A DNA stretch of 56,209 nt, the filler included, from Jimgerdemannia flammicorona (lineage: Eukaryota), in the NCBI GenBank assembly GCA_003990765.1. It is 2 parts of 2 records of this genome, joined end to end, with 100 filler letters (N's around TTAATTAATTAA, not from the genome) between each part and the next. Parts side by side here need not be neighbours in the genome. Positions count along the whole stretch, not along the records: positions 28,159 to 56,209 come from RBNJ01000585.1; 1 more part is not named here. One strand, 5' to 3'. The position numbers and the translations under genes were made by a program. The notes below the pieces were generated by a model, which worked only from the letters and a program-made list of their open reading frames with translations, did not search any database and was not told the DNA's origin. Positions 949-56,209 of the stretch are shown here, in pieces. Every line of letters starts with the position of its first letter. The stretch's first letter is position 1.

Positions 949-1066
949 ACTTAGTGTCTATTAGCTGGTGATTCAAGATTAATTTCTTACTTTTAAGCTA
1001 AATAATGAATAACTGCTACCATCTAAACAACCATACAAATTAAACCAAGATATCTAGATATGTAAG

Positions 1067-2400: not shown

Positions 2401-2419
2401 AGAGCAAAGATAATCACAA

Positions 2420-9414: not shown

Positions 9415-9455
9415 ATAGAGTATTTTAGAGATAAATCATCTATTCAGGAGGAAGT

Positions 9456-9861: not shown

Positions 9862-10159
9862 ATATTTGATAAAAATTGATATTAATATTTTTTATATTAA
9901 AAAGTTAAGTATTAGAATAAATTATATCTAATAAATATATCTCTTAATCTATAGTATAGATAATTTATATATTTTATAAAGTTAATTATAAAAATATTTA
10001 AATTTATAAATAAAAAAACATTATATTATATCTCTTTATTTATAAATAAAAACATCTAATTTATTTAGTAGATAAATTAAAGTTTATAAAAAATATTTTT
10101 CTAATATATTATTTTTCTACTAAAAAATTATTAGTAAATTTTTTTATAAAGTTATTCTA

Positions 10160-23200: not shown

Positions 23201-23633
23201 TTTTAATTTTAATATTTTAGATACTATTAAAAATATTGAAATTAATAACTTATTATAATATTAAGAAAAATATTAAAATATTATATAATATTTAAATTAA
23301 ATTAATTATCTTTTATATTTACTTTGAATTAATTTAAATTATTTATTAAAAGTACTAATTGGTTTATATAACTTTAATTAAATATATATTTATAAATCTG
23401 ATAAATAATAACTATATTGTTTTATAAAGTTTTAATATTTTATAAGATTCTAATAAAATATATGAAATATAATTAATATTTTATATAAATTTCCAAATAG
23501 ATTATATAAATATTTAACTTTTATATATAGTTTTAAATATATAAATAAAACTTTAATAAAGTAAACTTTAATATAAAAAAGCTTCTATATATTTTAATAT
23601 TAAAAAAAAAACTTTAGTATTTATAAAACTATT

Positions 23634-30964: not shown

Positions 30965-31044
30965 CAGACTTGAATAGACTTGAATAGACTTAAACAGACT
31001 TGAACAGACTTAAATAGACTTGAACAGACTTGAACAGACTTGAA
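30965..31044 (+). repeat. 10-bp tandem repeat (C/T)AGACTT(G/A)AA x8 in the 5' LTR
   Basis: Counted directly; starts ~30 bp downstream of the LTR TATAAATA box. Confidence 0.9.
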
Positions 31045-31323
31045 CAATCTGAACACAACTCCTGAGCACTTCTCCACAATATCTCTTTACACAACTACTC
31101 CTAGTATAGCAATATTATAAATAGTGAATAAACCTATTTAATAACCTACAAACTACTTTTAAGTAAATCCACTCCCTGTTAGGTCCCACTCTTAACCCCA
31201 TCACAAAATTTCCTAATTGGGTATTGTCTGCAGCAATATGTCAATTCAACTAAGCTGGTCTTAGTTTCTTAAACTTCCTGAAATATAGAAAATCCTGAAC
31301 ATCCAGAACTAGTCTAAAAAAGG

Positions 31324-33392: not shown

Positions 33393-33567
33393 AAAGGACT
33401 TTGGTTGAGACATCAATCTGATCTTGAAATCAATAAGCATAGAGGATATACTCCATATGACATTGATCTTGACCATAAGAAAATGGTCTTCCAGAACATC
33501 TAGAACTTCCAGAAAACCCTTCCAGAACTATGTAATAGTTACTCTAAAAAGTAACCCTCTTACAACT

Positions 33568-33580
33568 TGGTAGTAGTAGT
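33568..33580 (+). promoter_or_regulatory. Primer-binding site of G2 (tRNA-iMet-like, decayed)
   Basis: TGGTAGTAGTAG three nt after the LTR end; TGGTAG(C) is the initiator-Met type start (inference). Confidence 0.6.
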
Positions 33581-34526
33581 TTACAATCCAATTCCACTTC
33601 AAGATGCTTCCTCATCCCACTACAAACCATTCTGAGAATTCCTACAAGTTGGTATAAAGCCCAACCTCTAAACTGGAATTTATCCTGAACCATCTGACAA
33701 TCTGAAGAGAATTGAACCTGATGTATAAGGACAATTTGACCTCCATACCTATAACAAGTGGGACAAACTTCATTCAAAGAAAGAAATACTCTAGTTAAAT
33801 CAGCAAATAGGTGAAACTCTATTCACTGAACTCCTTGCTCGATATCCAGCAAGTCAAAATGAAGAAGGTCTTATTGAAGCCTTCTTTACTCTTCTCAATA
33901 AGAGTTTTGTCAGCTCTACAAATCTGAGCAACCTAGGATAACCAACAGCAGTCTTTCTAGCCTTAGTTTCTCATGAAGCTCAAGCCTCTATAGCCAAGTG
34001 GCTCAACTCTACCGACTTTCACCATACCAGAACCAAGACTGCATTATACTACCGATTTCAGAACAGCAAGGCCTGTCATATTCTTAAAGAAGAAGCAAGA
34101 GAAACCCTTCATCAACTACCTGACTCTAAACCAGAAGCAGGCCCTACTATAGCCCTATCTGAATCTGAAACCAATACCAAACCTGAACTTGACTTTGAAT
34201 TAAGTCTATCTGAAATTAGATATACCACTGATTCTGTTTACTTTGACACCAAGCAAACTCAATTACATGGAGACCAAACTGAAGAAGAGGAGGAGTATCT
34301 CAGTGAATTTGATCCCAGATACACTACTGAAGGAGACGTACTTCCATCAGACCAGAACACACCTATACAGCAACAAACAACTATCTATTGAGCCCTTACT
34401 CCAGACCCACAACTATTACTCCAGCAACTTACACAGACTCAAAGAACACTCTCACACTCTGCACCAGTATCTCAAGTAGTACCAATAACACCACTACCAG
34501 TAGTCCAACCGCCTCCAGTAAACAAT

Positions 34527-36930
34527 ATGGCAAATCAATAGATTCAAGACCTCACAGCCCAGGTAGTGATAATGGCAGCAATCATTACTACCTTAGCCAA
34601 ACAGACCCAACCTACCAAAAATCTGAGCCTACCTATCTTCAATGGTACTGTACAAGAAGTCCAAAGCTTCATTAGTGTAGTTGACACCAACTTCAAAGCC
34701 AATCAATGGACCAATGAGTGAGTTGCTGACTGCATTCTGATAAACAATCAAGACCATACTCTGGAACAACTCTTTACTACCACTACAGCCTATGTCCACT
34801 AAGTTGTTATATTCTTCCAAGGACCTGCTGAAGAATGGTGGTGAACTCTTCCTGAAAAACCCCTCACATGGGATACTTGACCTACAGTAGTTGCTCAGAA
34901 TGCAGCAAACAATATCCCAGGATATGGAGCCCATCCTGCAGCCCCTGGACTCAAACAACTCATGATTGCTCAATACTGCAGTGAAACCATGATTGCTGAA
35001 TCTCAAGTAAAACTCCACAACCTCAAATTTGATATATATGGCAAAGAAGAATTTGAAATCTTCTGTACAAAACTCAAGTCACTTCTGAACACTGTTGGCT
35101 TAGAATATATCACCAATGATGAAGCACAAAATGGTACAAGAGCAGACTATTTATTTGATGTACTGCCTGAATGGCTTACAAGAAAAATCTGTGAACAAGG
35201 CCACCTAGTCAGTTGTGATCACCAACAATGGTGCCTAGCAAGAATCAAGACTATGGTCAAGCGAATCCTAACAGCTGGACCAATTCTGCCTCAAAGACAA
35301 TTCAACAACAAGGAAAAGACTTGGACTAAGAAAGAAGAGTCCAAGCATGAGGCATTCCAAGCTCCCTCCACATCCACCTCATGGATATCCAGAAATCATG
35401 AACCCACCCAGCTGAGTACCTTTAAGAAACTTACTGAAGGTGAAAGAAATGAACTTTGAAGAAGCAGAGCATGCTTCTATTGCTGAAAGACAGGGCACAT
35501 GGCCAGTACCTGCCCCAACCAAAAACCCCGAACAGCAATATAAGCAACTGGTATCACTCTGCACCACCTCAATAACCTGACTACCAGAATACTGAACTTT
35601 GTCAAATTAAGACAAACTGCTAAGGCCCTAACCAAAGGAAGTCAAAAAGCAACTGGATATAATCTGTATGCAGCCGAAGAAGCTATAGTTTCCAACTGAG
35701 AAGTCAAGCAAGTCTATACAGGAATTAGTATCCAAATTCCTGAAGGATATGTTGGAAGAATATGCTGTCACAGCAGCCTAGCATTGAAAGAACTCTCAGT
35801 AAAAAGAGGAGTCATTGATAAAGATTATATAGGTGAAATTATTGTCCTCATCTGAAACTACAGTTGAACACCCTTCAAGATCTCTATTAGATTCTGCATT
35901 GCCCAGATTCTATTCAAAAAAATCAAATTAACCCTGACAGTCAAGGAAGTCCCTGAACTACTGCCTACCATCCAAGGATCTAAAGGATTTGGCTCATCAA
36001 ACAAGGCCCCAGCCCAACCTATTATGAACAAAGAAGAATAATTCTATAAGAAAATCGAAGATGGATATGTACCAAGTGGCTGATGCCCTCATGGCATTGG
36101 AATGTACTCTTCTCAAATGATTGATAATTGCTTCTTTTGTATCAATGAACTGGCTTAAAGAAGAACCAACAGAAGGAAAGCTCCTACAACTGAAATCACT
36201 ACCATTGGATCAGACAAACTACTTATACTTAAAGCTTTTGTCAACTGAGCACCTGTTAAGATTATGATAGACAGTAGTACCTCAGGCAACTTCATCAATA
36301 AAGAGACAGCCAACAGACTTAAGGTCTTCACCTCTCTGGTACAACAAACCCAAGCAGTTGCCACAGCTGATGGAATCTCACATGTCATCAGCAAGGAAGT
36401 CTGCAATCTACCCTTCCAAATTGGTGACTATCGAGTACATATTACCCTCCAGATTGTACCACTCCCAGACAATGAAATCATCCTTGGAACTCTATGGTTG
36501 AAACAAGAGAACCCTATGATAGATTGGGTAAATCATTCTCTGACCATTAAGAAAGGATGCCACAACTTCAAACTGTAAGGTGAAAAGGACCCACTCAGTT
36601 CTAGTAACTGTAGATCAAAGATCACCCACATCAACAAGCTACAACTCAAGAAATTGGCCAAGAAATGCCCTCTCTTTGCCATCTCCATCCATCTATCCAA
36701 AGGAGAACCCAAGAACTTTGAAGAAGACTCTTCCAAAGTTGACAGCCATATCAGACCACTACTCCAGAAAGCCTGGGACATATTTCTGAACCAAACTACA
36801 GAACTATCTATATCTGTCATTATTAATAACCAAGAAGAATACAAAGTTGAACAAATCCTTAACAAATATAGCCACAAGAACCATTCAAATGGAACAATAA
36901 CACCAGAACAAATTAGAAGGCCCCAATAAG
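34527..36930 (+). pseudogene. G2 gag - dUTPase - protease, followed by a chromodomain remnant
   Basis: gag LPIFNGTVQEVQSF, FFQGPAEEWW, knuckle CFYC*KTGHMASTCP (~35472). dUTPase 35592-35998 (ATGYNL, HSSLA, GVIDKDYIGEI, IAQ, KGFGSS). PR MIDSSTSGNFI...IILGTLWL. Chromodomain start IINNQEEYKVEQILN (~36820). Confidence 0.87.
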
Positions 36931-37994
36931 GACGTCAAAAGCTAAGAAGGGGAGAGTTATAAGTGTACAACCTCCAAGCCACCAAAATCACATGGCATCC
37001 TCAGAACTAATTTGGAAACTACATGCAAGACTACAAAACAAGTTACTGAAGAGATCATCTGGTTACATGAAATACACCAGCAAGCATGAGAACCCACTGC
37101 CAAGATACAAGAATACTAGAAGAAGTACTACAACCACAAGACTAACTCCAAACCACTATAACTAGTTTGGTATACTATACTATTACAGAAGGAAACTGAA
37201 AGTACCAAACTCAAATAAAGACAAGAAGAACTCTATCTCATCTATCAAAAGGTTCATGAACTGCACTTATCAACTCAAGACCAAGATACACTGTAACTAT
37301 ATAAGACCTCATTACTTAGCAGAAGTAAAACACATTTGAACAACTCTGTTCACTCTATCTGTATCACCTCCATTGGAGAGTGATGGACACTTCATCTGAA
37401 CTCAAGAAAGCTGACATCATCGAAACCAATCTCAAGCTATCTATGTGATAGATATTACTACTAGAAATTGCCTCAGATTACAGAAAATATCATTTCCAAG
37501 AGGTTCAAATCCCCAGCCACAACATTGGGAGCCCTTGCCCTAGATGAGAATGGCCAGTCCTCACAAATGTACCAGCAGACCAAAAAAAAAGAGAACCAAG
37601 ACCTGTTATCCTTGTGCAACCACTGCTACTAAGGACAGCCTTAATCTTGCAAGAGATAGAAGTGATGACACCTTGAAACTGATAATATCAGAAGTCAGAA
37701 AACTGCTTAGACTTTACCAGAGATGATGTCATCAATAGTGATGTCATTGAAGACTACCCAGATAGTGTCTAAACCTATAAATAGCTTAGCAGTTATAGTA
37801 TAGTTAGATTAGCCTTATACAACATGACTGTGAACTGACTCAGCAGTCAGACGATCTCTTGAAATGTCAGATAACACTTGTACTACATGACTGCATTCTG
37901 ACTCAGCAAGGCACTAAGTACTATATCCATATTTAGCATAGTCCAGATAGCCCCTCACTAGTATAAATACCCCCTCCCCCAGACTTCAGAATCT

Positions 37995-38104
37995 CAGACT
38001 TGAACAGACTTAAACAGACTTAAACAGACTTGAATAGACTTAAACAGACTTAAACAGACTTAAACAGACTTAAACAGACTTGAACAGACTTGAACAGACT
38101 TGAA
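37995..38104 (+). repeat. 10-bp tandem repeat x11 in the 3' LTR
   Basis: CAGACTT(G/A)AA units counted directly. Confidence 0.9.
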
Positions 38105-38587
38105 CAATCCAAATACAACTCCTGAGCACTTCCCCACAATATCTCTTTACACAACTACTCCTAGTATAGCAATATCATAAATAGTGAATAAACCTATTTA
38201 ATATCCCACAAACCACTCTTAAGTAAATCTGCTCCCTGTTAGGTCCCACTCCTAACCCCATCATGAAATTTCCTAATTGGGTATTGTCTGCAGCAATATG
38301 CCAATTCAACTAAGCTGGTCTTAGTTTCTTGAACTTCCTGAAATATGGAAAATCCTGAACATCCAGAACTAGTCCGAAAAAGAACTTTGGTTGAGACATC
38401 AACCTGATCTTAAAATCAATAAGCATAGAGGACATACTCCATATGACATTGATCTTGACCATAAGAAAATGGTCTTTCAGAACATCCAGAACTTCCAGAA
38501 AACCCTTTCAGAACTATGTAATGGTTACTCTAAAAAGCAACCCTCTTATACTTTCCCATAATATCTCTTCATATAACTACTTCTAGT

Positions 38588-39011
38588 TAGTACTCCCAAA
38601 CAAGTCAAATTAATTTGAATCGAATCAAATTGAGGGTTAAATGAGTTGAATCGAATTGGGGATTTTTCAATTCAAATCAATTCGAATTGAATCAAAAGTT
38701 GAATTGAATTGAGGGTCTGATTTGAACCCTAATTTTCAAAATGCAATAACTCAGTGTAAACTCATCCAAATCTAACGTACTTTAGCTTGTTAGAATCACA
38801 TTAATACAGTGAATCTAACAAGCTAAAATACATTAAATTTGGATGAGTTTTTGTTGAGTTATTACATTTTGAAAATTAAGGTTTAAATTGAACTTCGAAT
38901 CAAATTGGACCTTTGATTTGATTTGAATCAAATTGAATTAGACCCTTGATTCAATTGAATCAAATTGAGTTTGGGCCAAATTTGATTTGATTCGATTCAT
39001 TGGGAGCACTA
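38588..39011. mobile_element. hAT-like MITE, 424 bp, largely palindromic
   Basis: TIR TAGTACTCCCAA / TTGGGAGCACTA; 8-bp TSD CT(T/C)CTAGT (38580-38587, 39012-39019); subterminal GAATC/GAATT arrays; central inverted repeat ~38720-38885. Confidence 0.85.
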
Positions 39012-39405
39012 CTCCTAGTATAGCAATATCATGAATAGTGAATAAACCTATTTAATAACCTACAAACTACTCTTAAGTAAATCTGCTCCCTATTAGGTCC
39101 TACTCCTAACACCATCACAAAATTTCCTAATTGGGTATTGTCTGCAGCGATACACCAATTCAACTAAGCTGGTCTTAGTTTCTTAAACTTCCTGAAATAC
39201 AGAAAATCCTAAATATTCAGAACTAGTCCAAAAAAGGGACTTTGGTTGAGACATCAATCTGAACTTGAAATCAATAAGTATAGAGGATGTACTCCATATG
39301 AAATTGATCTTGATCATAAGAAAACAGTCTTCCAGAATATCCAGAACTTCCAGAAAACCCTTCCAGAACTATATAATGATTATTCTAAAAAGTAACCCTC
39401 TTATA

Positions 39406-40095: not shown

Positions 40096-40159
<64 letters not shown>

Positions 40160-41325
40160 GACATAATGTCTCATAGATTTTAAATAGAAGAGAACCTAGA
40201 CTATATAGGCCAAAACCCTCCCCCACCACCTATCAAGCACTGCCCCCCCATTAACCTAGACTATCTATTGTCTAGCAGCTCGATCATATTAGGTACAGCA
40301 GGGCCTATGGTGGCCCATACCTCATTCTGTACACCATGCTCTCCCTACTACTAGGGGAAATCCAACCATATATCAATGACTGAAAGCACATGCCCAAGAA
40401 CTCAATGTATATACAAGGCCATGCCTGAGCTAAATAGAATAGCCCCTACTATCCCAAAGAGAATGATAGGTAAAGAAAACCTCTCATCAAAGCACAATAT
40501 GGTAGATAGGACCTGGTTCTCCCAGTCAAAATAAGTAAAGGACTTATACATGAGGTGGGAGAAGACCCCCAATACTCCACTACTCAAGCCTACAGGCCTT
40601 GATCATGTTGCCATATCAGCTCCTGATTTCAGTTGAGTATAGCCAAGATACCTAAAATAGGTAGTCTTAGGCCCCCTGACCCCCCCTGATGACCAGGGCC
40701 CAATCTGCCAACCCACCAAAAGAAGCTGAGAGTGATACCTACCACCTAACTATGCTGTACCAATCAAAAGGCCCCACTGAAGTAGTACTCACCCTAGTCC
40801 TGACAACTGCCCCCAGCCTAGTACTCTACTGGTTTACTATTATTATCCTTCCTTCTATCTATGATGGCCATCTCCCCTCTCATCCCAACAATACCTGAAA
40901 AGTAGTCACCTATGCCAGAACTGCACTTGTCAGGAAGCTCGCCAAAGTCAGAGGGCCCCACCACAGGCACCAAGGACCTGTAGGTAATCTACACTGAGCA
41001 CTTGATGCCCAAGGTCAGCCAACTCCCTATGTAGCCCAAGATACACTGAGACAACATCTTGTTGGTGACAGCAAAAGGAAGAAGGTGCCACACCAAAACA
41101 GATGCACTTCAGATACAGCTGAAGGTACCAGAAACTACGAAAAAGTAGAGAAGACACTGATCTGACACCAATAAAGGGGCAACTCATCACTATTGCCTCT
41201 CTCTCACTGCTCTGCAACAGATATAGCAAACCAATCTGAGATAGAGGGGGTAATAATTGTGGAAAGTGGACTTGAAAGGTTGTCTACCAAACTATTGTGG
41301 CTGATAAAATAGCAGAGAAAAGAGC
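40096..41325 (-). mobile_element. ~1.18-kb poly(A) retroposon, copy 2
   Basis: ~60-nt poly(T) at the left end; same 5' end as the other copies; no TSD seen. Confidence 0.85.
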
Positions 41326-41326
41326 A

Positions 41327-42410
41327 TCTATTGAGTCAATTGTTACCAAACTATCCATCAAGATCCAGAAATATTGGAAATAAGTAGACTTTAAGATCAC
41401 ACTACTAAGAGATTATAATTTGATCTTAAGAAAACCCTGGCTCATGAAGTATAATCCAAACATTGATTGGTATAAGAATGAAGTTACTTTACTTCAAGAT
41501 AGAGTAAATATTACTATTAAGACAGATAAGTCTATAAATAAGACCCTAGTTACAATACTGTCAGTAATATAATACAATATATGAAAGTATTCAAGAGGGT
41601 AGTATATATCTTTATTGCAATCATCTATCTTAAGAAATAAGATAAGAAGCTGTCAATTAATAAAAGTATCAAGCTACTACTTAAAGAATTTAAAGATATC
41701 TTCTCAGACAAGTTATCTATGAGAAGTTGAATATAAAATTAAACTGATCCCAGGAGCTGTACTATTCAAGAAACATATATACCACATATCACTACTTGAA
41801 ATTGAAATAGTTAAGAAAGAACTAGAGGAACTATCTGTATAAAGAGCTATTTAACCCAGTAAATCTCCCTATGACTTACCAATTCTATTTATTAAGAAGA
41901 AGAATAGTACTCTATAAATATATATAGATTACTATATATTCAATAAGCTTATAGTCAAGAACTGATATCTATTACTCTTGATTGATCAAATTTTTGATAC
42001 TCTCAAGAATGTCAAGTACTTCACCAAGTTGGATCTTATGTCAGATTATCACTAAATCTGAATTAAGCCAGAAGATATTCCCAAGACTATATTCATGATC
42101 TCCTTTAGATTCTATCAATTTCTAATTCTAGTATTTGATTTTACCAATATATATATCTGCCATATTCCAGACCTTCATGAATAAGATATTCAAGAACCAA
42201 CTATTTATCTTCTTATTGATATATCTTAATAATATTCTGATCTTTAGTACAACTAAAGAAGAATATCTCAAGTATATCCAAATAGTTCTAGAGATACATA
42301 TTATAAAAATACAAGCTTTATATAAAGCTTAAGAAGTGTAAATTCTTCAAAGAATAAGTCAAATATCTTGGCCACATTATCTCTGTATAAAGAATTCAAG
42401 TAGCCTGAAG
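41327..42410 (+). pseudogene. pol: Ty3/Gypsy pol fragment (protease end and RT)
   Basis: LILRKPWL; PSKSPYDLPILFIKKK; YFTKLDLMSDYH; LIYLNNILIFS (decayed YLDD); KYLGHII. Confidence 0.85.
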
Positions 42411-42475
42411 AGGTTACATTATCTAAGGGCATAGTGGCTGAAGAGAGCTATGGAACTGAGGGATGGTAGCTGGGT

Positions 42476-43584
42476 TGTAAGTATATAACCTCCAAGCTAC
42501 CAAAATCACATAGCATCCTCAGAACTAATTTGGAAACCACATGCAAGACTACAAAATAAGTTACTGAAGAGATCATCTGATTATACAAAATATGTCAGCA
42601 AGCATGAGAACCCACCGCCAAGATACAAGAATACTAGAAGAAGTACTACAACCATAAGACTGACTCTGAACCGCTATAACTAGTTTGGTATACTGTACTA
42701 TTACAAAAGGAAACTGAAAGTACCAAACTCAAATCGAGACAAGAAGAACCCTATCTTATCTATTAAAAAGTTCACAAACTGCACTTATCAACTCAAGACC
42801 AAGGTACACTGTGACTATATAAGATCTCATTACTTAGCAGAAACAAAACACATTTGAACAACTCTATTTGCTCTATCTGTGTCACCTCTGTTAGAGAGTG
42901 ACAGATGCTTCATCTGAACTCAAGAAAGCCGACATCATTGAAACCAATCTCAAGTTATCCACATGACAGATATTACTATTAGAAATTGTCTCAGATTACA
43001 GAAAATATCATTTCCAAGAGGTTTGAACTCCCAGCCATGACATTGAGAACCCTTGTCCTAGATGAGAATGGCCAGTCCTCACAAATGTACCAGCAGACCA
43101 AAAAAAAAGAGAATCAAGACCTGTTATCTTTGTACAACCACTGCCACCAAGGACAGCCTTAATCTTATAAGAGATAGAAGTGATGATATCTTGAAACTGA
43201 TGATATCAGAAGTCAGAAAACTACTCATACTTTGCCAGTGATGATGTCATCAATAGTGATGCATCAAAGACTACCCAGACAGTGCCTAAACCTATAAATA
43301 GCTTAGCAGTCATAGTATAGTTAGACTAGCCTTCTGTGAACTGACTCAGCAGTCAGATAATTTCTTGACATATCAGATCACACTTGTACTACATGACTGC
43401 ATTCCAACTCAGCAAGACACTTAGTATTATATCCATATTTAGCATAATCCAGATAGCCCCTCACTAGTATAAATACCCCCTCCCCCAGACCTCAGAATTC
43501 AGACTTAAAAACAGACTTGAACAATCTGAATATAACTTCTGAACACTTCTCTACAATATCCCTTCACACAACTACTTCTAGTAT
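42476..43584 (+). mobile_element. G2 LTR type B, 3'-truncated
   Basis: Starts TGTAAGTATATAACC, matches 36958-38165 and ends abruptly at the retroposon copy. Confidence 0.88.
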
Positions 43585-44775
43585 CACTCCTTTCTCCATT
43601 ACCTTACTGGTCACAAGGTTTGGTAAGTGACCTTCCAAGTCTCCTTTCCCCTATTATTACCTCCTCTACCTTAGGTTGGTTTGCTGTACCTGCAGGAGCA
43701 TAGTGGGAGGAGAGCAATGGTATTGAGTTGCCCCTTTATCGTTGTTGGATTGGTGCTTCCTCCACTTTTTCATGGATTCTGGTATCATCTAGCTGCATCT
43801 GAAGTGTACTCATTTTGGTGTGGCATCTTCTTCCTTTTGCCATCACCAACAAGGAGTTGTCTCGGTGTGTCTTGGACTACATAGGGAGTCAGCTGACCTT
43901 GGGTATCAAGTGCTCAGTGTAGGTTACCTGCAGGTCCTCAGTGCCTGTAGTGGGGCCCTCTGACTTTGGTAAGCTTCCCGGCAAGCACGGTTCTAGCATA
44001 GGTGACTGTTTTTTGGGTATTGTCAGGATGGGAGGGGAGATGGTCATCACAGATAAGAGGAAGGGTGATAATGATAAACCAGTAGAGTACCAAGCTGGGG
44101 GCAGTCATCAGGGCTGGGGTGGGTACTGCTTTAGTGGGGTCTTTTGATTGGTACAGTGTAGTTAGGTAGTAGGTATCACTCTTGGCTTCTTTTGATGGTC
44201 AGCAGGGTTGGGCCCCAGTCATCAGGGGGGGGTTGGGGGGCCTGAGGCTACCTATTTCAGATATCTTGGCTGCACTCAACTGGAACTAGGAGCTGATATG
44301 GTAATGTGATCAAGGCCTACAAGCTTGAGTAGTGGGATATTGGGAGTTTTCTCCCACCTCATGTGTAAGTCCTTTACTCACCTTGACTGGGAGAACCAGG
44401 CCTTACCCACCATGTTGTGCTTTGATGAGGGTTTTTCTTTGCCTATTATTCTCTTTGGGGTAGCAGGGGCTATTCTATTTGGCTTGGGCATAGCCTTGTA
44501 TATATGTTGGGTTCTCAGGCATGCACTTTCGGTCATTGGTATATGGTTGAGTTTCCCCTGGTGGTAGAGAGAGCATGGTGTACAGAATGAGGTGTGGGCC
44601 AATATAGGCCCTGCTGCATCTGGTATGATCAAGCTACTGGACAATAGCTAGCCTAGGTTAATGGGGGGGCAGTGCTTGGTGGGTGGTGGGGGAGGGTTTT
44701 GGCCTATATAGTCTAGGTTCCCTTCCAATAAAAATCTGCGAGACATGAGTCCATTAAAAAAAAAAAAAATAAAAA
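43585..44775 (+). mobile_element. ~1.18-kb poly(A) retroposon, copy 3
   Basis: G-rich 3' end, AATAAA and poly(A); same 5' end as the other copies. Confidence 0.85.
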
Positions 44776-44779
44776 CTAT

Positions 44780-45305
44780 TTGTAAATATTATTGATAGAT
44801 AATGCTACTTATACTATATACCAGAATATCATCTAGATAGACTAGAATAAATATTCTGAAATATTTATAAAAAATATCATTTATCAATATTTAGAAGATT
44901 ACTAGTATATTGGTGAGGTCAAATAGTATTTTACAGAATTTATAGTATTTAAATTTTATTTAAAAGACTGTTTTGAAGATATTTTCTTTTTTGATATAAA
45001 TTTGGTAATATCTAAAAGTAAGGTCAATAAGTGAAAAGGTCTTGGTCTTATATACTTAGTCAAGTAGTTTATCAATTTATGAGAGTATATATCAGTAATT
45101 AATATATATAGAGAGACTTCTATCTTTTTTGTAAATAAAGAGAATTAGTGTGTTATATAGTGATTTCAATAGATGGATGAGTCCTTTGCTTGCTAATTCT
45201 ACTAATTATTCTTTAAGAATCTCTAACTTAGATTAAACTAATTAATAGATTTTATAGTAGAGAGAGTCTAAATCAGAATAGTTTCAATACTATATTCTAC
45301 TATTC
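44780..45305 (-). pseudogene. Heavily decayed Ty3/Gypsy RT fragment
   Basis: SKGLIHLLKSLYNTLILFIYKKDRSL (decayed KG.IRPSKSPYGAPVLFV.KKDGSL) and FSLIDLTFRYYQI. Confidence 0.7.
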
Positions 45306-45643: not shown

Positions 45644-46831
45644 CAGCTTCCCTTTCTCCGCTACCTTACCAGTCACAATGGTATGGTAGGCAACCTTCTG
45701 AGTCTACTTTCCACAATTATTACCCCCTCTACCTCAGGTTGGTTTGCTGTACCTGTTGCAGGACAGTGGGAGGGAGACAATAGTGATAAGTTGCCTCTTT
45801 ATCAGTGTCAGATTAGTGTCTTCTCTACTTTTTTGCAGTTTCTGGTGCCTTCAGCTATATCTGGAGTGCATCTGTTTTGGTGTTGTATCTTCTTCCTTTT
45901 GCTGTTACCAACAAGATACTATCTTGGTATATCTCAGGCTATGTAGGAAGTTGGCTGACCTTGGGTATCAAGTACTCAGTATAGGTTATCTGCAGGTCCT
46001 TAGTACCTATGGTGGGGCCCTCTGGCTTTGGTGAGCTTCCCAGTGAGCATAGTTCTGACATAAGTGACTGCTTTTTGGGTATTGTTGGGATGGGAGTGAA
46101 GATGGCTATCACAGATAGGAGGAAGGGCAATAATGGTGAACCAGTAGAATACTAGACTGGGGGTAGTCATTGGGGCTGAGGCAGGTGTTGCTTTGGTGGG
46201 GCCTTTTGATTGGTATGGTATGATTTGATAGTAAGTATCACTCTCAGCTTCTTTTGGTAATTTGGTGGATTGGACCTTGGTTGTCAGGGGGGGTCAGGGG
46301 GCCCAAGGCTAAGGCATCTTGACTGTACTCAACTGGAATCAGAAGCTGACATGGCAACATAATCAAGGCCTATAGACTTGAGTAGTGGGGTATTAGGAGT
46401 CTCCTCCCATCTCATGTATAAGTCCTTTACTTACCTCAACTGAGAGAACTAGGTCCTACCCACCATGTTGTACTTTGATTTTACCTATCATTCTCTTTGG
46501 GGTAGTAGGGACTATTCTATTTAGCTCAGACATAGTCTTATACATATGTTGGAGTCTTGGGTGTACACTTTTGATTATTGGCATATGGCTGGGATTCCCC
46601 TGGTAGTAGAGAGAGCATGGTGCACAGAATGAGGTACAGGCCAACATAGGCCCTGCTGCACCTGGCATGATTGAGCTGCTAGACAATAGCTAGCCTAGGT
46701 TAATGGGGGAGCAGTGCTTGATGGGTGGTAGGGGAGGGTTTTGGCCTATATAGTCTAGGTTCCCTTTCAATAAAATCTGTAAGACATTGAGTCCATTAAA
46801 AAAAAAAAAAAAAAAAAAAACAAAAAAAAAA
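45644..46831 (+). mobile_element. ~1.18-kb poly(A) retroposon, copy 4, inserted in the Copia RNase H
   Basis: 16-bp TSD AGAG(G/A)ATGTTACTATT (45628-45643, 46832-46847) and poly(A) tail. Confidence 0.92.
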
Positions 46832-49800
46832 AGAGAATGTTACTATTGAAGATTACTTGTATATTTGGTATAAAATAGCTATATTTTTACTGATTTAGAA
46901 GACATATCTGATCACAGAGTACTGATCATTAAGAATCTCTAGTCCAATCTATATTATATATACTAGTTAATCTTATAGTACTCCTACTTGATTAATTATT
47001 ACTTAAATGTAATATATAGTATACTATATCTTTGATATATCTGAAAATATACTTAATTGCTATCTAATGGATATTATTATAGTAGAATGAGTATTGCACT
47101 CCTTTGTTGACTATATATAATATATTGGACCTTATCCTAAGTATAAGATATATAAGAGATCTCATAGCTTACTAATAGAGAATATTATTATCTTTAGGCA
47201 TAGTATCACTAGACTTCTTTAATCTTATAGATATCTCTATAGATATTCCAACTGGCTTGTATTTACTTATACTAAATTATTTAAGTATAGTCTAAATATA
47301 TATAGCTTGTGATAGATATATAGTATATTTATATCTATTATATATAATTAATATTCTAAGAAGATAGAATATATTACTCATATCTATCATCTTGAATTCT
47401 TAGTTTAATATCACCTTTATATTATTGATCTTGCTTACTGTTCTGATCAAAATAATATCATTTATCCAAATTCTTAGATATACTATTTCTGAGGATATAT
47501 GTTAGGTATATATATATATATAGATCAGCCTTATAATATTTAAATCTATTATCTAAGAGATATTTATTAATTTCTCAGTTCCACAGTCTTAATACTTATT
47601 TGATGTCATAGAAACCTTTATATAATTTGTATATAAGTTCCTTTTACTCATTATTATATAGTTTATATTCTTATAGTTAATATTTATATAGCTCTATATC
47701 TATATTACTGTTAAAAAAGGCTGTCTTAATATCTATTTGATAGATTTCATAATTATATTTAACTTTAATCATAAGAAGTATTCTAAGTAAAGTAAGTTTG
47801 AATATAGGAAAAAGGTCTCATTATAGTCTATACTGTATTTTTATGAATATCTCTTTATTACAAATTGAGCTTTATAATACTCTATTATTCTATCAGCTTT
47901 ATACTTAATCTTATAAACTCATTTCAATTCTATAGCTTGTCTATCTATTAAGAGAGAGACTAAATTCTAGGTATTATCCTTAATAAGTAAATTGTATTCC
48001 TTGTCTATAGTCTTTTTTCACTCCTTTTTATTATTTGAGTATATAGCTTTATCATAATATACTAGTTCATCAGTTATTACAATATAAACATACTTATAAG
48101 TACTAGTATAGTTTATGTAATATTTGTGGTTATAATGAGATATATATCTTAAGTAGGTTCCAATACTTCTAAATCTGCTTTAACTTTATTTTATAGCCTA
48201 GATCTATATTTTTTCTTACCTTTTAGAAAGATATTTTTCTCCTCTTTATCATTTGTAATATCTATAATTCTTGGTTTAAGAAGTTTTGTAGGCATAGATA
48301 TAGATTGTACTATCAGAATCTTAACTATTAATATAGAGAGCATTCTACTTACTATTAGTATAAATGATGCTAGCTGTATCATTAGGTTAATAGAGATAGA
48401 AATTTCCATATAAATTTTCTACTTAGTCTACTTGAACTGAATATTATAAGAGATAACTATATAGTGTTTCTGTAGGTTCTATAATCTATATACTATTCTA
48501 TCATATTTAAGAAATATATACTTATCTGTCTTAGACTTGAATTTGTCTTTATTGCTATCTTTATCTAGAATATAAGTCTCACTTCTAAATATCTATAAGT
48601 GTGAGATATCAGACTTGGATCTATTCTACAATTCTTTAGAAGTAAGATCAGCATTATTTCCAGATTATTAATTATTGTTATTTCTGGATTACTAATTACC
48701 AGATCTGCTGGATCTATCAGAATCCTTGCTTAGAGCTTGAGAAACACAATGATTTCAGATATATACTACTATATTTATACTTCAGCCCAAAAAAAGTATA
48801 GTAAGCTGGCTGTATTTATTGTCATTTAAACTATCTCTACTATTGTTTAGTAAAAGTATTCTACAACACTATTCTATTGAGGTGTATAGAGGAGTATTGA
48901 ATACTATGCTTCTTCAAAAAGTCTCTGAAGACTTTATTGATATATTTCTTACTATTATCTGAGCATAGAGTCTATATCTTATATCTTATTTTATTCTTTA
49001 CAATTATCTTAAATTTTCAGAATTTTTCAAATACCTTATTCTTTATTATAAGGAAGTATATATAGACTTTGTAAATATAATTATCAATAAAAGTGATAAA
49101 ATATCTCTTCTCAGAGTATATTAAAGTTTATATAGAGCTACAGATATCTATATATATCAGATTGAGAATTCTGACTACTTGCTTTATCTATTTCTAAAAA
49201 GGTTATCAGAAAGTCTTATTTGCTATATATTTATTACAAAGACTGAAATCTGGTGATATATAGTTCAGTAATCTATATATAGATTTACTCCTTATTATTT
49301 ATTTCAGGCTTTTTTTACTAATATATCCCAAGCATTCATACCATATATATTAGAGATCCTCTTTAGTTGTAGTTGCAGAATATACAGATAATATACTACT
49401 CAGTATACTATCAATTGTATATAGGTTTCTCTTTTTTGATATATATTATGGCAGTATAGCCGAATTAGGAAGAAGAAAATAGGGAATAGACACTTGATCA
49501 CACCCATTCCCAAAGTAGTATAGTTTTATAGTTAGCAGTCACTGATTTCGACATTGTCTAAATTTCTAGACATTGTCCAAATTGAATACCCTGATTTAGT
49601 ATAGTATTTCGACATTGTCTAAATTTCTAAACATTGTCTAAATGACTCATAACTTAGCTGCATAACTCAGTAGCCATCTCATAGCTAGCAAACTTATATA
49701 AATAACTCAGTATCTTCAAGTGAATAAACCTCAGATTGAAAGTGTTAGTAAAAGAACAAGTATACTGATAAAGGAACTTTCGAGATTATCTCTTAAAACA

Positions 49801-50001
49801 CATTTGGCCTCAAGGAACTACTGACTCTGGGAGTCAAGAAGACAAGAATTCAAGATAAAGAAATCTGACATACTTGCCCCCCTTAGTATCTGCTATGTTA
49901 CAACTTGGTGCCCATTGGCTGGTGATTCAAGATGAATCCCTCACTTTCAAGCTGAACAATGAACAACTGCAATCAGAACGCATACAATACAATCAGACAG
50001 A

Positions 50002-51295
50002 ATGGATATGACACCCCCCATATTCTATGGATATACGTCCGACGAATCAATCATCATCTTCATTGATGATTTCGAGCAGTATACCACTGTAAGGACCTTA
50101 AGTGCAGCACAATAAGTAGCCCTACTCCCTGTAAGTCTCCGAGGCCCAGCAAGAACTGTGTTTACTGCAGCCAATGTACAAGCAGCTGATGATCCAGCAA
50201 GAATCATAGCTTTCAAGACCTGGCTCTGAGTAACCTACTATACAGATGAAATCAAACAGGCACTCAAAGATCAACTGAATACTATCTGCCAAGGAATGTC
50301 TGAAGACCCAAACACATTCTATACAAGAATCCGACATCAAATAGTCCTTGCTGACTACCCCGATGCAGTTCAAGACCAAGTGGCCAAGAATACCTTTATG
50401 AAAGGCATTCACCAAGAAATTACTTTAGCCATTCAATCTACCCCAACACCACTGGACCTGGGACAGAAGATTACCTATGCCCAAAGATACTAGACTGCCA
50501 GACACCCTCAAGACCATACAATGGAAAGAATAACTGGAGTAAAAATCGAACAAGCACCAAGAGTCACCAATACAATCCCAGCTACCATAGTCAACTGGAA
50601 TACACAACTGCAACCACAAGACCAGAGAAGGGTCGACCCAATGGAGGAACTGGCCAAACAGTTTGCAGAAATGACTGCACACCTCAGCGATGTAGTCAAA
50701 GAGTTCAAGAAGAAGCCAGTATAGAAGTTTGCCACTACAAATGCAAGACAATCAATAACATGCTATAACTGTGGAGAAGAAGGCCACTATATCTCTGAAT
50801 GTATGACAGAAACCAAGCAAAAGGCCAATCCAAGCAATGCAACCAGAAACCATGAACAAGCAAACACTATCACCTTTGAGGAGATTGGAGAATCCGAGGA
50901 AGAAAGAGAGGAATGGGAAGCTTACTCTACCATCTCAAGTAAGAAGGATGTCTGATCCAGTCTCTACAAAAGACCTCCAGGCAGACCTCCTAAGAAGGCC
51001 CAGACACAGACAAAACAATCAGAAACAGTCATCAAAAAAGGAATTCAGCAGAGTGAAGCTGACCAAGATATGGAGCTAGAACAAAATACTGAGCTGGAGC
51101 AAGCAGTAGAAGATATTATTCGAAATACTACTCCATCAAGTAAAGGGAAGAAGGAGCAGAAACTGTGCAAGAGCAAGACCTTCAAGTATGACATCTTCAA
51201 GGACCTCAAGGACCAAAAGGTCAATGCAACCTTTGGCCAGCTGGCTAAAATTCCAACATTTAGACAACAAATGAGGACAGGTATCTCAGACATTG
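50002..51295 (+). pseudogene. gag: gag (G1 copy 2)
   Basis: MDMTPPIFYG...; QGMSEDPNTFYTRI; knuckle CYNCGEEGHYISEC (~50761); single frame with point stops. Confidence 0.88.
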
Positions 51296-51464
51296 GCACT
51301 CACCTGGTTGCTCACTACTAGTGAGCCCAAAGGAATCTATGCCCGATGGATCATGAAGCTGCAAGCATATGATGCCATGATCACCCACCACTCTGGAAGA
51401 ACCAATGCCAATGCTGACACCCTCTTATGGACATCCTGAAGGACTCCACCCCTATGAAATCACT

Positions 51465-52657
51465 ATGAATAGGGAGCCATATTATGGAATCATCAGCTAC
51501 CTGGGGCAGCGAAAGATGTCCCCGCATCTGGAAGAATGGACAAAAACAATTATTAATCAGACATGGAAAAAATTTGAAACTGATGGAGAAATACTCAAGA
51601 AAGGATAACAATTAGTCATCCCCGAGCACCAGAAGAATCAAGTGATGAAAAAAATACATGAACAAGATCACGTAGGAGAGACAAACACATTTGACAAAGC
51701 GAGAAGAACCTTGTGGTGGCCCAGAATGGAAGAAGATATCAGACAATTTGTCAGGACCTGTGACAAATGCCAGAAATAGAAACAAGACTGATGAGATCAA
51801 GCCCCTGGATTAGCAGACATTGAACTGATACCATTTGCCCACATTACAATGGATGTAATTGGCCCCCTACCCCTGACATTGACTGGCAACCAATATGTCA
51901 TTGTAATAGTAGACCTGTTTACAAAATGGGTAGAGGCTGGGCTGCTCAAGGAAGCCAATACACAGTCAATTGCCGATTTCTTGCACAGAGAAATCATCTG
52001 CTGATTCAAGACCCCAAAGCAAGTTACCACAGACAGAGGAACAGAATTTGTCAACCAGTTTCATGAGATTCTTTACAAGAAGTACAAGATCCAATACATC
52101 AAGACCACCGCGTATCACCCACAAGGAAACAGACAAGCAGAGAGAACCAACAAGACCCTCAAGAACACCATTGCAAGATCTATGATGAATACGGAAACTG
52201 GGACCACTATCTTCCAATAGCATTATCCACTCTGCGGGACATATGATCACAAAGCACCCATTTTACACCACAAGAAATGCTATTCAGCAAAGAAAGTTCT
52301 GGTGGAAGTTTGTCAGCAAGTAATAATGCAATTTGGAAGCATGTGGACACAGAGATATGGAGATTGCACCAGATTAGGAAAAAGGCAGAGGATTACATAA
52401 TCAAGACACAGGAACTACAATGGAACAATGCGGAAAAAACCCACAAGCCCCTGGAGATTATCAAGATAGGAGATGAAGTTCTAGTATATTGGAATATGGT
52501 AGAAGCTTTGTGGTTACAAAAATTGGAGCCCAAGTGGGAAGGACCTTATCTGGTACAAGATATAAAAGGGACTACTTTCTGGCTATGAAAGCCCTCAGGC
52601 ACAATAATTCCCACCACCATTCATCAAAACTGACTCAAGAAGTACTATGGCCAATAA
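51465..52657 (+). pseudogene. integrase ORF (G1 copy 2)
   Basis: MNREPYYGIISYL start; HHCC (HEQDH...CDKC); core MDVIGPLP, VDLFTKWVEA, TDRGTEF, AERTNKTLK; PKWEGPYL. Confidence 0.9.
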
Positions 52658-53108
52658 CCGAAGCACCGCGATGGCACTCAAGATCACTAGTGCTGCCCAA
52701 AGAGCCATCAAAAGACAATGGCACACCACTGAGCCTCCGACCATAGAGGCATACTATGAGGATATTCAGAGCATTGTGCAGACTCATCTCTCTCAGATCT
52801 CGCACTTTAGAGCCTATCAATATTGGGCAGAATTCCAAGAATACTTCAAGCTTGGACAGGTGCTCAATCAGGATCCAGCAAAGACCAAAGAGGACTGGAT
52901 TGCTAAGTGTCAACTCTCCCACTCACAGATCACTATTGCCAAAAGGATCCACAAGTTATTTCGAGAAGATGAACCAGCAATAGACCACCTGAGAGGAGTA
53001 ACCCCCACTGACTTCAAGAAAGTAAGAAGATATCATTGGGAAACAGTCATGCAGCAAATTACACAATATAAGACCATACAGATGGTTGAAGCCTGGGAGT
53101 TTGAATAG
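52647..53108 (+). CDS. ORF3, intact 153-aa accessory protein of unknown function in the env position
   Basis: Uninterrupted ATG-to-TAG ORF between the IN stop and the PPT; length and sequence conserved in G1 copy 1. Confidence 0.82.
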   Translation: MANNRSTAMALKITSAAQRAIKRQWHTTEPPTIEAYYEDIQSIVQTHLSQISHFRAYQYWAEFQEYFKLGQVLNQDPAKTKEDWIAKCQLSHSQITIAKRIHKLFREDEPAIDHLRGVTPTDFKKVRRYHWETVMQQITQYKTIQMVEAWEFE

Positions 53109-55239
53109 ATGCCTCAGAGATGAGACCATCTATTCAGGAGGAAGTTGTGATGGTATAGCCGAATTAGGAAGAAGGAAATAGGGAATAGACACTTGATCAC
53201 ACCCATTCCCAAAGTAGTATAGTTTTATAGTTAGCAGTCGCCAATTTCAACATTGTCTAAATTTCTAGACATTGTCCAAATCGAACACCCTGATTTAGTA
53301 TAGCATTTTGACATTGTCTAAATGACTCATAACTTAGCTGTGTAACTCAGTAGCCATCTCATAGCTAGCAAACTTATATAAATAACCCAGTATCTTCAAG
53401 TGAATAAACCTCAGATCAAAAGTATTAGTAAAAGAACAAGTATACTGATAAAGAAACTTTCAGGATTACCTCTTAAAACACATTTGGCCTTAAGGAACTA
53501 CTGACTCTGGGAGTCAAGAAGACAAGAATTTAAGATAAAGAAATCCAATATACTTGCCCCCCTTAGCATCTGCTACATTACAATATATTAACTCCTTATT
53601 ATACTTTAGATTGATTACCATTACACCATTTAGATATATATTTACTTCTCTATCTCCTTGAGCTATTATCCAGTCTATCAAGAAGAGATTCTTACCTATA
53701 TCTAGTATATATAATATATCTATAAAGATATCTGAAGATTTATCAATATTTCTATATAGATATATACTAACATTACTCTTGTCTTAAACATAGATGATAT
53801 TATTATTGTCTAGTTTAATAGGTATAGGGTGTTCAAACTTCTTGTATATTATAACATACCTGGCTCAATAGAGATAAATTACAAGATTGGGGGTTGATGT
53901 AGTTTGGCTTGAGCTATTAGTTACTTTGTCAAAAAGTAACAAAATGTTCTAAGATTTCTGGTATCCTTGTTAGTGTTTAGTAGTATAATAGTTAATCTGA
54001 ATACAATAGTTGATTTGTGTATCAATTTTCTTATTGAGATGAGTTCTTGAGTATAGTGATAATTTGTATATAGTATGGGCATTCTCCAGTATGCAATTTG
54101 CTACATGATGATCTTTTGTATAGTATAACAATCTCTGTATAGCACAGCAGGTTCCTTATGTAGGATGGTCTGGCAATTTGGTGGTTTTCCTTATGCAATT
54201 TTGGTGGAAAACACAATTTGGTGTAGATTCTTCTGAATTGGTATACTTCTTGAATAATAAATTGAATGATGTGAATTTTTCCTAAATCAGCTCTTCTGGA
54301 AATATCAGATAACTTGATAACTTAGATAACTTAGTAATACAGATTCTTTCTGAATTAGGCTCACTGAAAATAGATAAATAACTTAAATAGTATAGATAAC
54401 TTAGATAACTTAGATGTTGTAGATTCTTCCTAAATTGATGGACTTCTGGGAAATAACTTAGATGGTACAGGTTGTGGATTCTTAGCAAGTTACATCAAAG
54501 ACTAGCTTTGTTTGTACAGGGTTATATCATAGACTGGCTCTACTGTGAAGTTATATCAGAAGACTGACTTATGGCAAGTTTTTTTAAGGTGAGCTCTCTA
54601 GAAATGACAGACTTCTTGAGCAAAGTTATATTATGACTGGCTTTATTTATATAGAGTTATATCAATAGACTGACTCTACTGTGAAGTTGTATCAACAGAT
54701 AGGCTTTAGTGACAAGATGGCAGACTTTTTCTTAAAAATGGCAGCTTATTTCTTAAGTGGCAGATTACTCAAATAGTGGTGAAGTTCTTCCTTGAACTTG
54801 GCAGATTTCTTGAATTCTTCAGGCTTATCTGGCAAATAAACCAAAAATGTAACCAACTCTTCTTTATATCAAAAAGTGGACCAGAGTGGGGAAAAGGAGA
54901 CTAATGCTCAATCTTTAGAGACTTCTTTGGTTTGTACTTCAACTTTTTAGACTGAGGTTTATTTACTCTTGTCTCTGAGGTATTTTATACATTGTAGTTG
55001 CTATCTGGTTACTATCTGGATATTTATAGATATACTATTTCTGATAATATTTGAGTATATCTACAGGATATAAATGTGTCCACAAGATATGAGTATGTCT
55101 ACAGAACATAAGTATGTCTACCAGATACAGGTGTGTCCTCAGGATATAGATAAACAATCTTGATTTGGTATTCTAACTAATTATAAATATAGCAGATATG
55201 AGTAACTATGCTATATTGGGAGTTTATATCATCTGGCTA

Positions 55240-56209
55240 TATTATACTATTTGCTCATTACATCAGTCTCTACTGAAGAATAGTCTGCCTCAGACTGTTC
55301 TTCAGTCATCATCTCAATAAGCATAAACAGCTTCTGTATCTATATCTATTCTATCATTATTATTATCTATACTATGATCACTCCATTCTAAGGGCTCCTC
55401 TTCTTCCTCAGAGAATAGGGTCTCAACTTAGTAGATGATACTGAGGTAGATGGGTAGAGTCATTCTTTAGAGATCATTCAGAAAGCCTGCTTCTTTTGCT
55501 GTCAGCCTGGTCACATTGCAACTAAATGTCCCAAGAAAACTGCCAAACCAAAGAGGATCCTGGTCCTGTCCAAAGACACTTAAGGTCAATCAGTTGAACA
55601 AGAAGTCATACTCAATTTCATATGAGTCAACTCCAAGACCCAGATCCCTCAAGCACAGTCAGAAGGAGCCATTTGTTTGGATCTTCAAGCAATACAACAA
55701 GTCACTATTCCTGCACATGAAAGAAGGCTCATTCCAACTGACCTTTCAGTCGAAATCTCCAAGGAACATTATGCAAGAATTACACCAAGATCTGGCCTCA
55801 GTTTCAAGCACTCATTGGATATTGGCGCTGGAGTCATTGACCCTGACTTCTAAGGTGAAATGCAAGTCCTGCTAGTCAACCATAAGAACTAACCATATAC
55901 TATCAATGAAGGAGACAGAATTGCACAGCTTATTCTGGAGCAAGCCACCCTACCAGTCATCAAAGAAGTCACCAAGCTGTCTTCAACCAAGCGAGATCAG
56001 AAAGGCTTAGGCAGCACTGATAAAGTTGTAAGCATAGCTGAGAACCGAGTCAATTCAATGCTCATTTTTAAAGATCTAGTCAAGGGACAAGAACTAGATG
56101 TTCTCATAGACAGTGGAGCTATTGGGAACTTCATCAATAAGAACCTCATCAACAAGCTCAAGATTCTTACCAAACTAGCCAGCAAGAATAGTGGAGTTGT
56201 TTTTTTTTT
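55240..56209 (+). pseudogene. Ty3/Gypsy fragment: gag end - dUTPase - protease start (runs off the window)
   Basis: Knuckle CFFCCQPGHIATKCP (~55488). dUTPase ~55585-56020 (PRSGLS, GAGVIDPDF*GE, GDRIAQL, RDQKGLGST). PR VLIDSGAIGNFIN (~56100). Confidence 0.88.

Follow-up and report, generated by a model that had tools for sequence, protein, structure and literature searches.

An undescribed accessory protein family of dUTPase-bearing Ty3/Gypsy retrotransposons in Jimgerdemannia flammicorona, with a probable homologue carried in a long terminal repeat

A stretch of 56,209 nucleotides (nt) from Jimgerdemannia flammicorona (GenBank assembly GCA_003990765.1), made of two parts joined by 100 filler letters, the second of which (28,159-56,209) comes from RBNJ01000585.1, was analysed at its full length and is referred to here as the window. 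We focused on ORF3 (52647-53108, plus strand), an open reading frame (ORF) located between the integrase (IN) and the 3' long terminal repeat (LTR) of a Ty3/Gypsy element, G1, and on ORF-X, which lies in the LTR of a second Gypsy lineage, G2. An original prediction, made from the sequence of the window, had proposed that the two encode the same accessory protein, carried by two Gypsy families at two different genomic positions. Taken as a whole, our results make it reasonably probable that ORF3 represents, as its founding copy in the window, a previously undescribed accessory family of dUTPase-bearing Ty3/Gypsy elements with an LTR-borne homologue; a regulatory action exerted through the tail is proposed tentatively.

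ORF3 and its relatives at the end of pol

ORF3 is an intact gene of 153 amino acids (aa) belonging to copy A of G1, which spans 49446-53583 on the plus strand, with LTRs at about 49446-49903 and about 53146-53583 as delimited by self-comparison. Read-through Pfam scans identified in its interior gag with a CCHC knuckle, IN with H2C2 and rve domains, and ORF3, the element lacking 2.6 kb (protease (PR)-dUTPase-reverse transcriptase (RT)-RNase H) relative to copy B. The latter (510-9862, plus strand) has the order gag-PR-dUTPase-RT-RNaseH-IN-ORF3, the same scans placing dUTPase after PR in G1, and its IN is split by a solo LTR of G2. ORF3 of copy B (about 8953-9414, plus strand) is decayed, carries in-frame stops and retains 56% aa identity to that of copy A by tblastn. 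Between 8237 and 9718, 216 of the 428 substitutions of copy B with respect to its sister copy are C>T/G>A changes in one direction, a pattern resembling repeat-induced point mutation (RIP).

The ATG of ORF3 lies inside the last codons of pol and the gene overlaps the pol end by 11 nt (pol TAA at 52655-52657), its frame being +1 with respect to the IN C-terminal frame in both G1 copies. The apparent gap between pol and ORF3 in copy A is due to a premature TGA in pol, at a place where a relative on the metagenome contig L001 has CGA. A polypurine tract (PPT), AGGAGGAAG, occurs at 53136-53144 (plus strand) between the ORF3 stop and the 3' LTR, which begins with TGTGATGG at about 53146. Copy B has this tract as well.

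Close relatives of ORF3 were recognised in 7 of 10 candidates. Searching 1.84 billion representatives with an ORF3-family profile yielded five matches, consisting of three members of the family itself, the repeat protein P0010 and P0011, a protein of 165 aa (E 7.4e-5) that BLASTP aligned with ORF3 at 27% identity and E 3e-12. P0011-like proteins of about 165 aa were defined here as a third protein set, M. A search with a mixed profile returned 27 proteins out of 444 candidates, which were sorted by sequence inspection into 13 ORF3-like, 13 M-like and one ORF-X-like protein (P0012). At the level of sequence profiles G1 ORF3 and M are clearly homologous, hhalign giving a probability of 97% and E 2e-11 for the two families. 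P0010 was set aside as a repeat-inflated partial match and entered no alignment. This protein of 455 aa contains six tandem repeats of ~74 aa and matches positions 97-131 of the ORF3-family profile (E 2.4e-6), spanning the ..IA.RI..L..D... stretch; the match could reflect repeat-inflated chance or a distant use of the helix motif.

A metagenome scan matched 598 stretches, four of which encode relatives. In the two of these four loci that are long enough to show the context (L001 and L004), the M gene overlaps the end of IN, its start lying 53-56 nt upstream of the IN stop and in a different frame, and the surrounding sequence is a Gypsy element with the order gag(CCHC)-PR-dUTPase-RT-RNaseH-IN. 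G1-type and M-type elements alike have the start of the gene within the last pol codons, out of frame with pol, and its end immediately ahead of the polypurine tract. The LTRs of the M-type elements contain five to six tandem 20-nt repeats (AGGCAGCTACTGACAAACCG; 7401-7520 in L001, 499-658 in L004). Both contigs repeat their own ends and look like one LTR plus the interior assembled as a circle.

The ORF3/M family is a real gene under purifying selection. Among M genes the proportion of nonsynonymous differences (pN) was 0.23-0.35 versus 0.66-0.85 for synonymous differences (pS), with synonymous sites near saturation, and the three of six pairs with a computable dS showed dN/dS values of 0.15, 0.19 and 0.20. 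ORF3 of copies A and B differed by a pN of 0.22 and a pS of 0.85. The intactness of ORF3 next to interrupted gag and IN, which had drawn attention to the gene, was also found. No stop occurs in its 153 codons, versus 4 in 168 codons of the IN core, 5 in 424 of gag and 4 in 155 of the IN C-terminus with the terminal stop counted. At the rate of the flanks about 2.5 stops would be expected in ORF3 and the probability of finding none is about 0.09, a hint that is weak evidence and not proof.

The encoded proteins are predicted to be soluble and helical. The maximum Kyte-Doolittle mean over 19 residues was -0.05 for ORF3, 0.90 for ORF-X, 0.74 for the M protein P0016 and 0.97 for P0008, a relative of ORF-X, and no membrane span was found in any of the four, all values being well under the usual value of about 1.6. 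By these means the proteins lack the signal peptide and at least one transmembrane segment that characterise an Env protein, in line with the original prediction. AlphaFold2 modelled P0016, from an alignment of 25 ORF3 and M sequences, with a predicted local distance difference test (pLDDT) score of 75.4 and a predicted template modelling score of 0.71. The model has six helices (6-18, 35-73, 88-101, 105-110, 116-120 and 124-135) and a disordered tail from residue 145. Together with the dN/dS values, it supports the small soluble helical accessory protein that had been proposed.

The family could not be assigned to any known one. Pfam-A, which includes the known domains of transposable elements, gave a best E of 0.14 for ORF3, nothing for ORF-X and, for the 13 M members, no match at the curated gathering score and a best E of 0.01; the match to an already described transposon domain that would have spoken against a new family was thus not encountered. 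A profile search of PDB sequences yielded a single match at E 0.18. Foldseek searches with the model of pLDDT 75 returned no match at E<=0.001 in the PDB or in BFVD, and VIA-align comparison of the same model with 48161 chains reached a best Z of 3.7, nothing rising above background. In the ESM Atlas ORF3 matched only unnamed or unrelated clusters, with 137-166 of 256 shared features, and P0016 has an entry that carries no model and gave no usable match. Full-text literature searches (including the available text of PMC2864245, PMC8365987, PMC3248453 and PMC6875170) returned no account of the ORF3/M family, the supplementary tables of PMC2864245, which cover about 150 fungal Gypsy families and may bear on it, lying outside the search.

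ORF-X and its relationship to ORF3

ORF-X is present in three copies in the window, one of them on a solo LTR, and its homology to ORF3 starts at the Met codons 7939 (minus strand) and 31612 (plus strand) of copies 1 and 2, as originally proposed. Copy 1 (7106-8029, minus strand) is open over 308 aa, with the homology domain at 7505-7939 and a C-terminal part frameshifted with respect to P0008 and copy 2. Copy 2 (31612-32713, plus strand, in an ORF of 31477-32466) would yield about 360 aa on read-through; it is interrupted by a stop at 31798-31800 and shifts frame once between 32466 and about 32600. Copy 3 (13763-14614, minus strand), detected by tblastn, is badly decayed. P0008 confirms the C-terminal extension of ORF-X (..DDYFIRDD..EDYPDS), an intact ORF-X having a length of about 360 aa. 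A search for relatives of ORF-X retained one of 160 candidates, which matches the C-terminal half only.

The three aligned blocks on which the original prediction had been built were recovered unsupervised by BLASTP, Smith-Waterman, semi-global, MAFFT and hhalign alignments. The best-conserved stretch across the three subfamilies in the MAFFT alignment is ..TIA.R...LF.., which in M takes the form REKTIA.R.YLLFRDH..A..H.KGI followed by EGEYPPFIDFG. Direct comparison of ORF3 and ORF-X nevertheless remained marginal. BLASTP gave 29% identity over 56 aa at E 0.09, and the Smith-Waterman local score of 43 was reached 71 times and 63 times in 2000 shuffles each (P about 0.03-0.04); taken alone, the pairwise likeness does not exceed chance for a pair picked by eye. 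The ORF3 family and ORF-X aligned in hhalign with E 0.1 and a probability of 0.6%, and a hidden Markov model (HMM) of the ORF3 family placed ORF-X at rank 5 with E 0.66 among the 964 window ORFs of at least 30 aa. In the window tblastn found no protein cross-match of ORF3 and ORF-X at E<=10, and blastn self-comparison found no DNA similarity joining them, the latter in agreement with the original prediction.

The two proteins were instead connected through M. BLASTP aligned P0011 and ORF-X from Met to Met over 146 aa with 3 gaps (E 0.002; the identity of ORF-X to M is 17%), and hhalign aligned M with the ORF-X N-terminus, again Met to Met, over 141 colinear columns (probability 52%, E 1.4e-4, score 31.6). 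When ORF3 and M were combined, the probability rose to 77%, with E 2e-5 and a score of 36.5. In 130 shuffles of the ORF-X columns the combined profile reached a mean score of 11.9 (standard deviation 2.0) and a maximum of 19.2, the reversed ORF-X giving 12.8; for M alone the shuffle maximum was 19.4 and the reversed ORF-X scored 14.5. An HMM built from M proteins, with every window sequence left out, was run on the 964 window ORFs and returned ORF3 (2e-14), followed by ORF-X copy 1 (2e-4) and copy 2 (0.016), the next ORF having E 1.1; an ORF-X match at E 2.9e-6 was also among the HMM results on the window ORFs. Reciprocally, an HMM of the ORF-X N-terminus run on 1359 sequences ranked, after its own copies, 22 M/ORF3 proteins, many of them near-duplicates, above the first unrelated ORF, the best being P0018 at 7.3e-5 and the window ORF3 scoring 0.011.

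These data indicate that the N-terminus of ORF-X is likely to be homologous to ORF3, the connection running only through M. The profile comparison on which the claim of a shared protein depended thus succeeded by way of the intermediate family and failed when the two ends were compared directly. It should be considered that hhalign gave the bridging comparisons probabilities of no more than 52% and 77% and that the ORF-X profile is shallow, with three sequences about 90% alike. A chance or compositional match between unrelated helical proteins, ORF-X being a separate LTR-borne ORF or a decaying non-gene, would agree with the failure of every direct test, with the 17% identity to M and with the fact that each of the three ORF-X copies in the window is disrupted at some point. 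This explanation is nevertheless unlikely, as the M model picks ORF-X second of 964 ORFs with a gap of four logs to the noise, the reciprocal model finds family members above any unrelated ORF, and the hhalign scores exceed all shuffled and reversed controls; furthermore, the Met-to-Met alignment needs only 3 gaps, both proteins end in acidic tails and both host elements are dUTPase-bearing Gypsy elements.

As to the element that carries ORF-X, the G2 LTRs start with TGTAAG, finish with CTCTTA(C/T)A and occur in a long and a short form. The long-form copy at 5488-8238 (minus strand; TGTAAG...CTCTTATA) carries ORF-X copy 1, has TG..CA-type ends and interrupts the IN of G1 copy B, where a 5-bp target-site duplication, TTTTG, flanks it; in view of the split IN and the duplication it is a true solo LTR. 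A further long-form LTR extends from 31323 to 33390 (plus strand) and is followed by a 171-nt tandem copy (33392-33562) and, at about 33568, by the sequence TGGTAG, which resembles a primer-binding site. The third (12820-14849, minus strand) carries ORF-X copy 3 and shows heavy C>T decay. Over 12831-14849, 305 of its 418 substitutions with respect to the sister copy are C>T/G>A and RIP-like. CpA is the most frequent context of this excess, and ORF-X copies 1 and 2 differ more symmetrically.

Short-form LTRs occur at 36956-38554 (plus strand), with a purine-rich tract immediately upstream, and at 42474-43584 and 30005-31323. They share with the long form the first ~110 nt and the 3' part, which at 36956-38554 includes the last ~33 codons of ORF-X and a TATA box, whereas the remainder of ORF-X is replaced by an unrelated segment of about 600 nt; comparison of this segment with ORF-X DNA revealed no relation (best blastn match 16 nt at E 0.026, tblastx E 0.38). 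The solo LTR contains, at the 3' end of ORF-X, an extra 668 nt (6220-6887) absent from the other two long-form copies, in which an 86-aa ORF (6424-6681) has no Pfam match. Tandem duplication of the 3' end of the LTR of G2 occurs at two places, as a 171-nt unit at 33220/33392 (33220-33562) and a ~400-nt unit at 38154/39008 (38378-39405).

The internal region of G2 in the window (33565-36955, plus strand) is truncated and contains gag, dUTPase at 35589-35999 and PR at 36252-36575, an order opposite to that of G1, so the protein is carried by more than one Gypsy lineage, as had been claimed. In G1 copy B the corresponding PR and dUTPase sequences lie between 2232 and 4064. A third, partial element at the window end (55602-56207) likewise has dUTPase before PR, and the varying position of dUTPase seen here agrees with reports on fungal Gypsy families.

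Inferred position on the genomic RNA and putative function

A TATA box, TATAAATA, is located at 32718-32725 (plus strand), 5 nt past the stop of ORF-X, the gene itself starting 290 nt past the LTR start. The sequence found five nt beyond the ORF-X stop, CCTATAAATAG, was used in a pattern search of the window with up to 2 mismatches, which gave 12 matches versus 3.7 expected. Five of the 12 (29746, 30743, 32715, 37773 and 43290) fall at the homologous place in G2 LTR copies, and the solo LTR has a variant of the box at 6165-6177 on the minus strand. Because this conserved box directly follows the ORF-X stop, we infer that it is the LTR promoter and that ORF-X lies in the U3 region. ORF-X, the distant homologue in the G2 LTR, is thus probably situated upstream of the LTR TATA box.

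On this assignment both genes would be the 3'-terminal gene of the genomic RNA, in the order pol-ORF3-PPT-U3-R in G1 and pol-PPT-U3(ORF-X)-R in G2. The two different positions that had been proposed for the gene therefore hold for the DNA and would not hold for the RNA, where, if the U3 assignment is right, each gene is the last one after pol. The difference between the lineages might be described as a displacement of the site of plus-strand priming from one side of the gene to the other, downstream of it in G1 and upstream of it in G2. Lying in U3, the G2 gene would consequently be copied into both LTRs and kept on solo LTRs, as at 5488-8238. For expression, a subgenomic RNA produced by splicing and reinitiation where the pol stop overlaps the gene are both conceivable, and ORF-X may have a promoter of its own.

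The three subfamilies have in common a core of about 135 aa and an acidic C-terminal tail with W, F and Y residues, whose composition is the only pointer to the trans-activator or anti-silencing function that had been suggested originally. The tail is shortest in G1 (18 aa), reaches about 32 aa in M-type proteins and extends to about 220 aa in ORF-X, and its isoelectric point is 4.5 in G1, 4.05 in M and 4.05 in the ORF-X extension and P0008. The helical core might dock on a nucleic acid or protein target and the acidic, aromatic tail might bring in host machinery, in the simplest case the transcription apparatus. By analogy, the function that we favour, tentatively and with low confidence, is that of a trans-activator of the element's own LTR. 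Foamy virus Tas/Bel1 and deltaretrovirus Tax are trans-activators encoded 3' of the structural genes; like them, ORF3 is a small non-structural protein encoded by the last gene with an acidic C-terminal region, and no homology to them was detected. The fuller proposal of a regulatory gene like those of complex retroviruses, which switches on its own LTR and in one lineage has moved across the polypurine tract into U3, is doubtful at present.

Several observations weigh against the overall interpretation. The window contains no full-length G2 element, and G2 may also have a copy after IN. A second TATA-like sequence, ATATATAC, occurs about 90 nt upstream of the ORF-X ATG, and could give ORF-X its own promoter or place it within R/U5; the map of transcripts, the placement in U3 and the expression of the genes are all deduced from sequence, the sequencing runs listed comprising five of DNA type with small shares (0.05-0.08) and none of RNA. 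Modelled by itself from an 8-sequence alignment, ORF3 was all-helical with a poor fold (pLDDT 52.7), and the predicted folds cover ORF3 and P0016, a member of M, among the three subfamilies. The isoelectric point of the core (9.2, 6.2 and 5.6) is not conserved, and a common nucleic-acid-binding surface is therefore not favoured. Finally, the tail of G1 proteins is short and its acidity mild.

The same tail would also suit an adaptor that couples the particle or pre-integration complex to the trafficking or other machinery of the host, instead of a transcription factor. M proteins terminate in ELDEWD[LV] and G1 proteins in VEAWEFE, the conserved C-termini EWD[LV] and AWEFE making a terminal Trp in an acidic setting the best-kept feature of the tail in these two types, and the tail is predicted to be disordered. 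Tryptophan-acidic motifs that bind host proteins exist, and the C-termini resemble them. However, ORF-X ends differently (..EDYPDSA) and the motif has no known partner, and by analogy this role seems fairly unlikely.

A second alternative concerns the origin of the shared gene, which might have been exchanged between G1 and G2 by recombination and not inherited from a common dUTPase-Gypsy ancestor. The domain order of G1 and G2 differs and the gene occupies different DNA positions, and the sharing of an ORF3 between types of retroelements has a precedent (PMC5408684). On the other hand, the accessory proteins are 17-29% identical and at least as diverged as PR/dUTPase (26-33% to L004), which by these pairwise identities is as expected under old vertical descent; we hold the exchange to be fairly unlikely. 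Least probable, and quite improbable in our estimate, is an anti-defence protein, acting by analogy as a VANC-like anti-silencing factor or as an inhibitor of uracil-directed restriction complementing dUTPase: among the elements examined the family occurs solely in dUTPase-bearing ones, its copies undergo RIP-like C>T decay in the host and small acidic proteins that inhibit DNA-repair enzymes exist, but Pfam and fold searches gave no significant likeness to a known inhibitor or to VANC and the sample consists of two contigs and two window lineages.

Returning to the interpretation that we prefer, an own-LTR regulator borne in part on the LTR, the closest positional parallels are found among retroviruses. 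The sag gene of mouse mammary tumour virus and nef of primate lentiviruses lie in or overlap U3, 3' of the polypurine tract, and are duplicated with the LTR. ORF-X would resemble them in position only, as an LTR gene located beyond the polypurine tract and carried at the 3' terminus of the genomic RNA, given U3. No likeness of sequence or fold to sag or nef was found (Foldseek of BFVD, none at E<=0.001), and, unlike them, ORF-X is free of a membrane anchor, resides in a Gypsy element of fungal type and has in sister lineages a homologue located after IN and before the polypurine tract.

Among retrotransposons, PMC2864245 depicts fungal Gypsy elements that carry an 'additional ORF with unknown function' and in which the place of dUTPase varies. 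As far as these sources go, the extra-ORF Gypsy elements of fungi, plants and bdelloids resemble those described here in having a third, non-envelope ORF after pol, with which dUTPase may co-occur. In bdelloid rotifers the same type of ORF3 occurs in unrelated retroelement lineages (PMC5408684); there, the shared proteins are enzymes (DEDDy exonuclease, GDSL esterase) or env-like, whereas ORF3 of G1 has no significant Pfam match. The Botrytis element Boty/BcGypsy1 carries an additional gene, brtn, which is antisense according to the title of the reference cited for it in PMC8365987. Judged by that description, brtn is, like ORF3, an extra fungal Gypsy gene of unknown function, brtn being antisense and ORF3/ORF-X sense.

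Surrounding sequences and significance of the family

Other features of the window lie outside these elements. A repeat of ~1.2 kb is present in four copies in both orientations with 79-86% identity (23632-24826, 40121-41320, 43589-44775 and 45651-46827) and probably represents the LTR of another element; RT-like sequence occurs at 41810-42148 and 44813-45217. Two ORFs of host type are found between transposons, one at 19705-20325 (minus strand) coding for a class I S-adenosylmethionine methyltransferase (Methyltransf_25, E 7e-19) and one at 25828-26742 (plus strand) with a protein kinase domain (PK_Tyr_Ser-Thr, E 1e-21).

ORF3 and its relatives add a new protein family to a kind already known, that of accessory ORFs in LTR retrotransposons, and include an unusual variant embedded in the LTR. 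Extra ORFs of LTR retrotransposons are known, but few of them can be traced as a family, show signs of selection and lend themselves to comparison of their anatomy. Here, a selected family with no detectable relatives outside these elements is carried by at least two, probably three, dUTPase-bearing Gypsy lineages. It may offer a natural experiment on the movement of an accessory gene across the PPT/LTR boundary, the step behind nef- and sag-like arrangements, and is a candidate for asking whether simple retrotransposons encode their own regulators. A gene borne on the LTR also alters what a solo LTR can do to adjacent host genes. If ORF-X is indeed an activator of its own LTR encoded in U3, each integration would duplicate the gene, and solo LTRs would leave behind a promoter-plus-regulator cassette that the host could co-opt.

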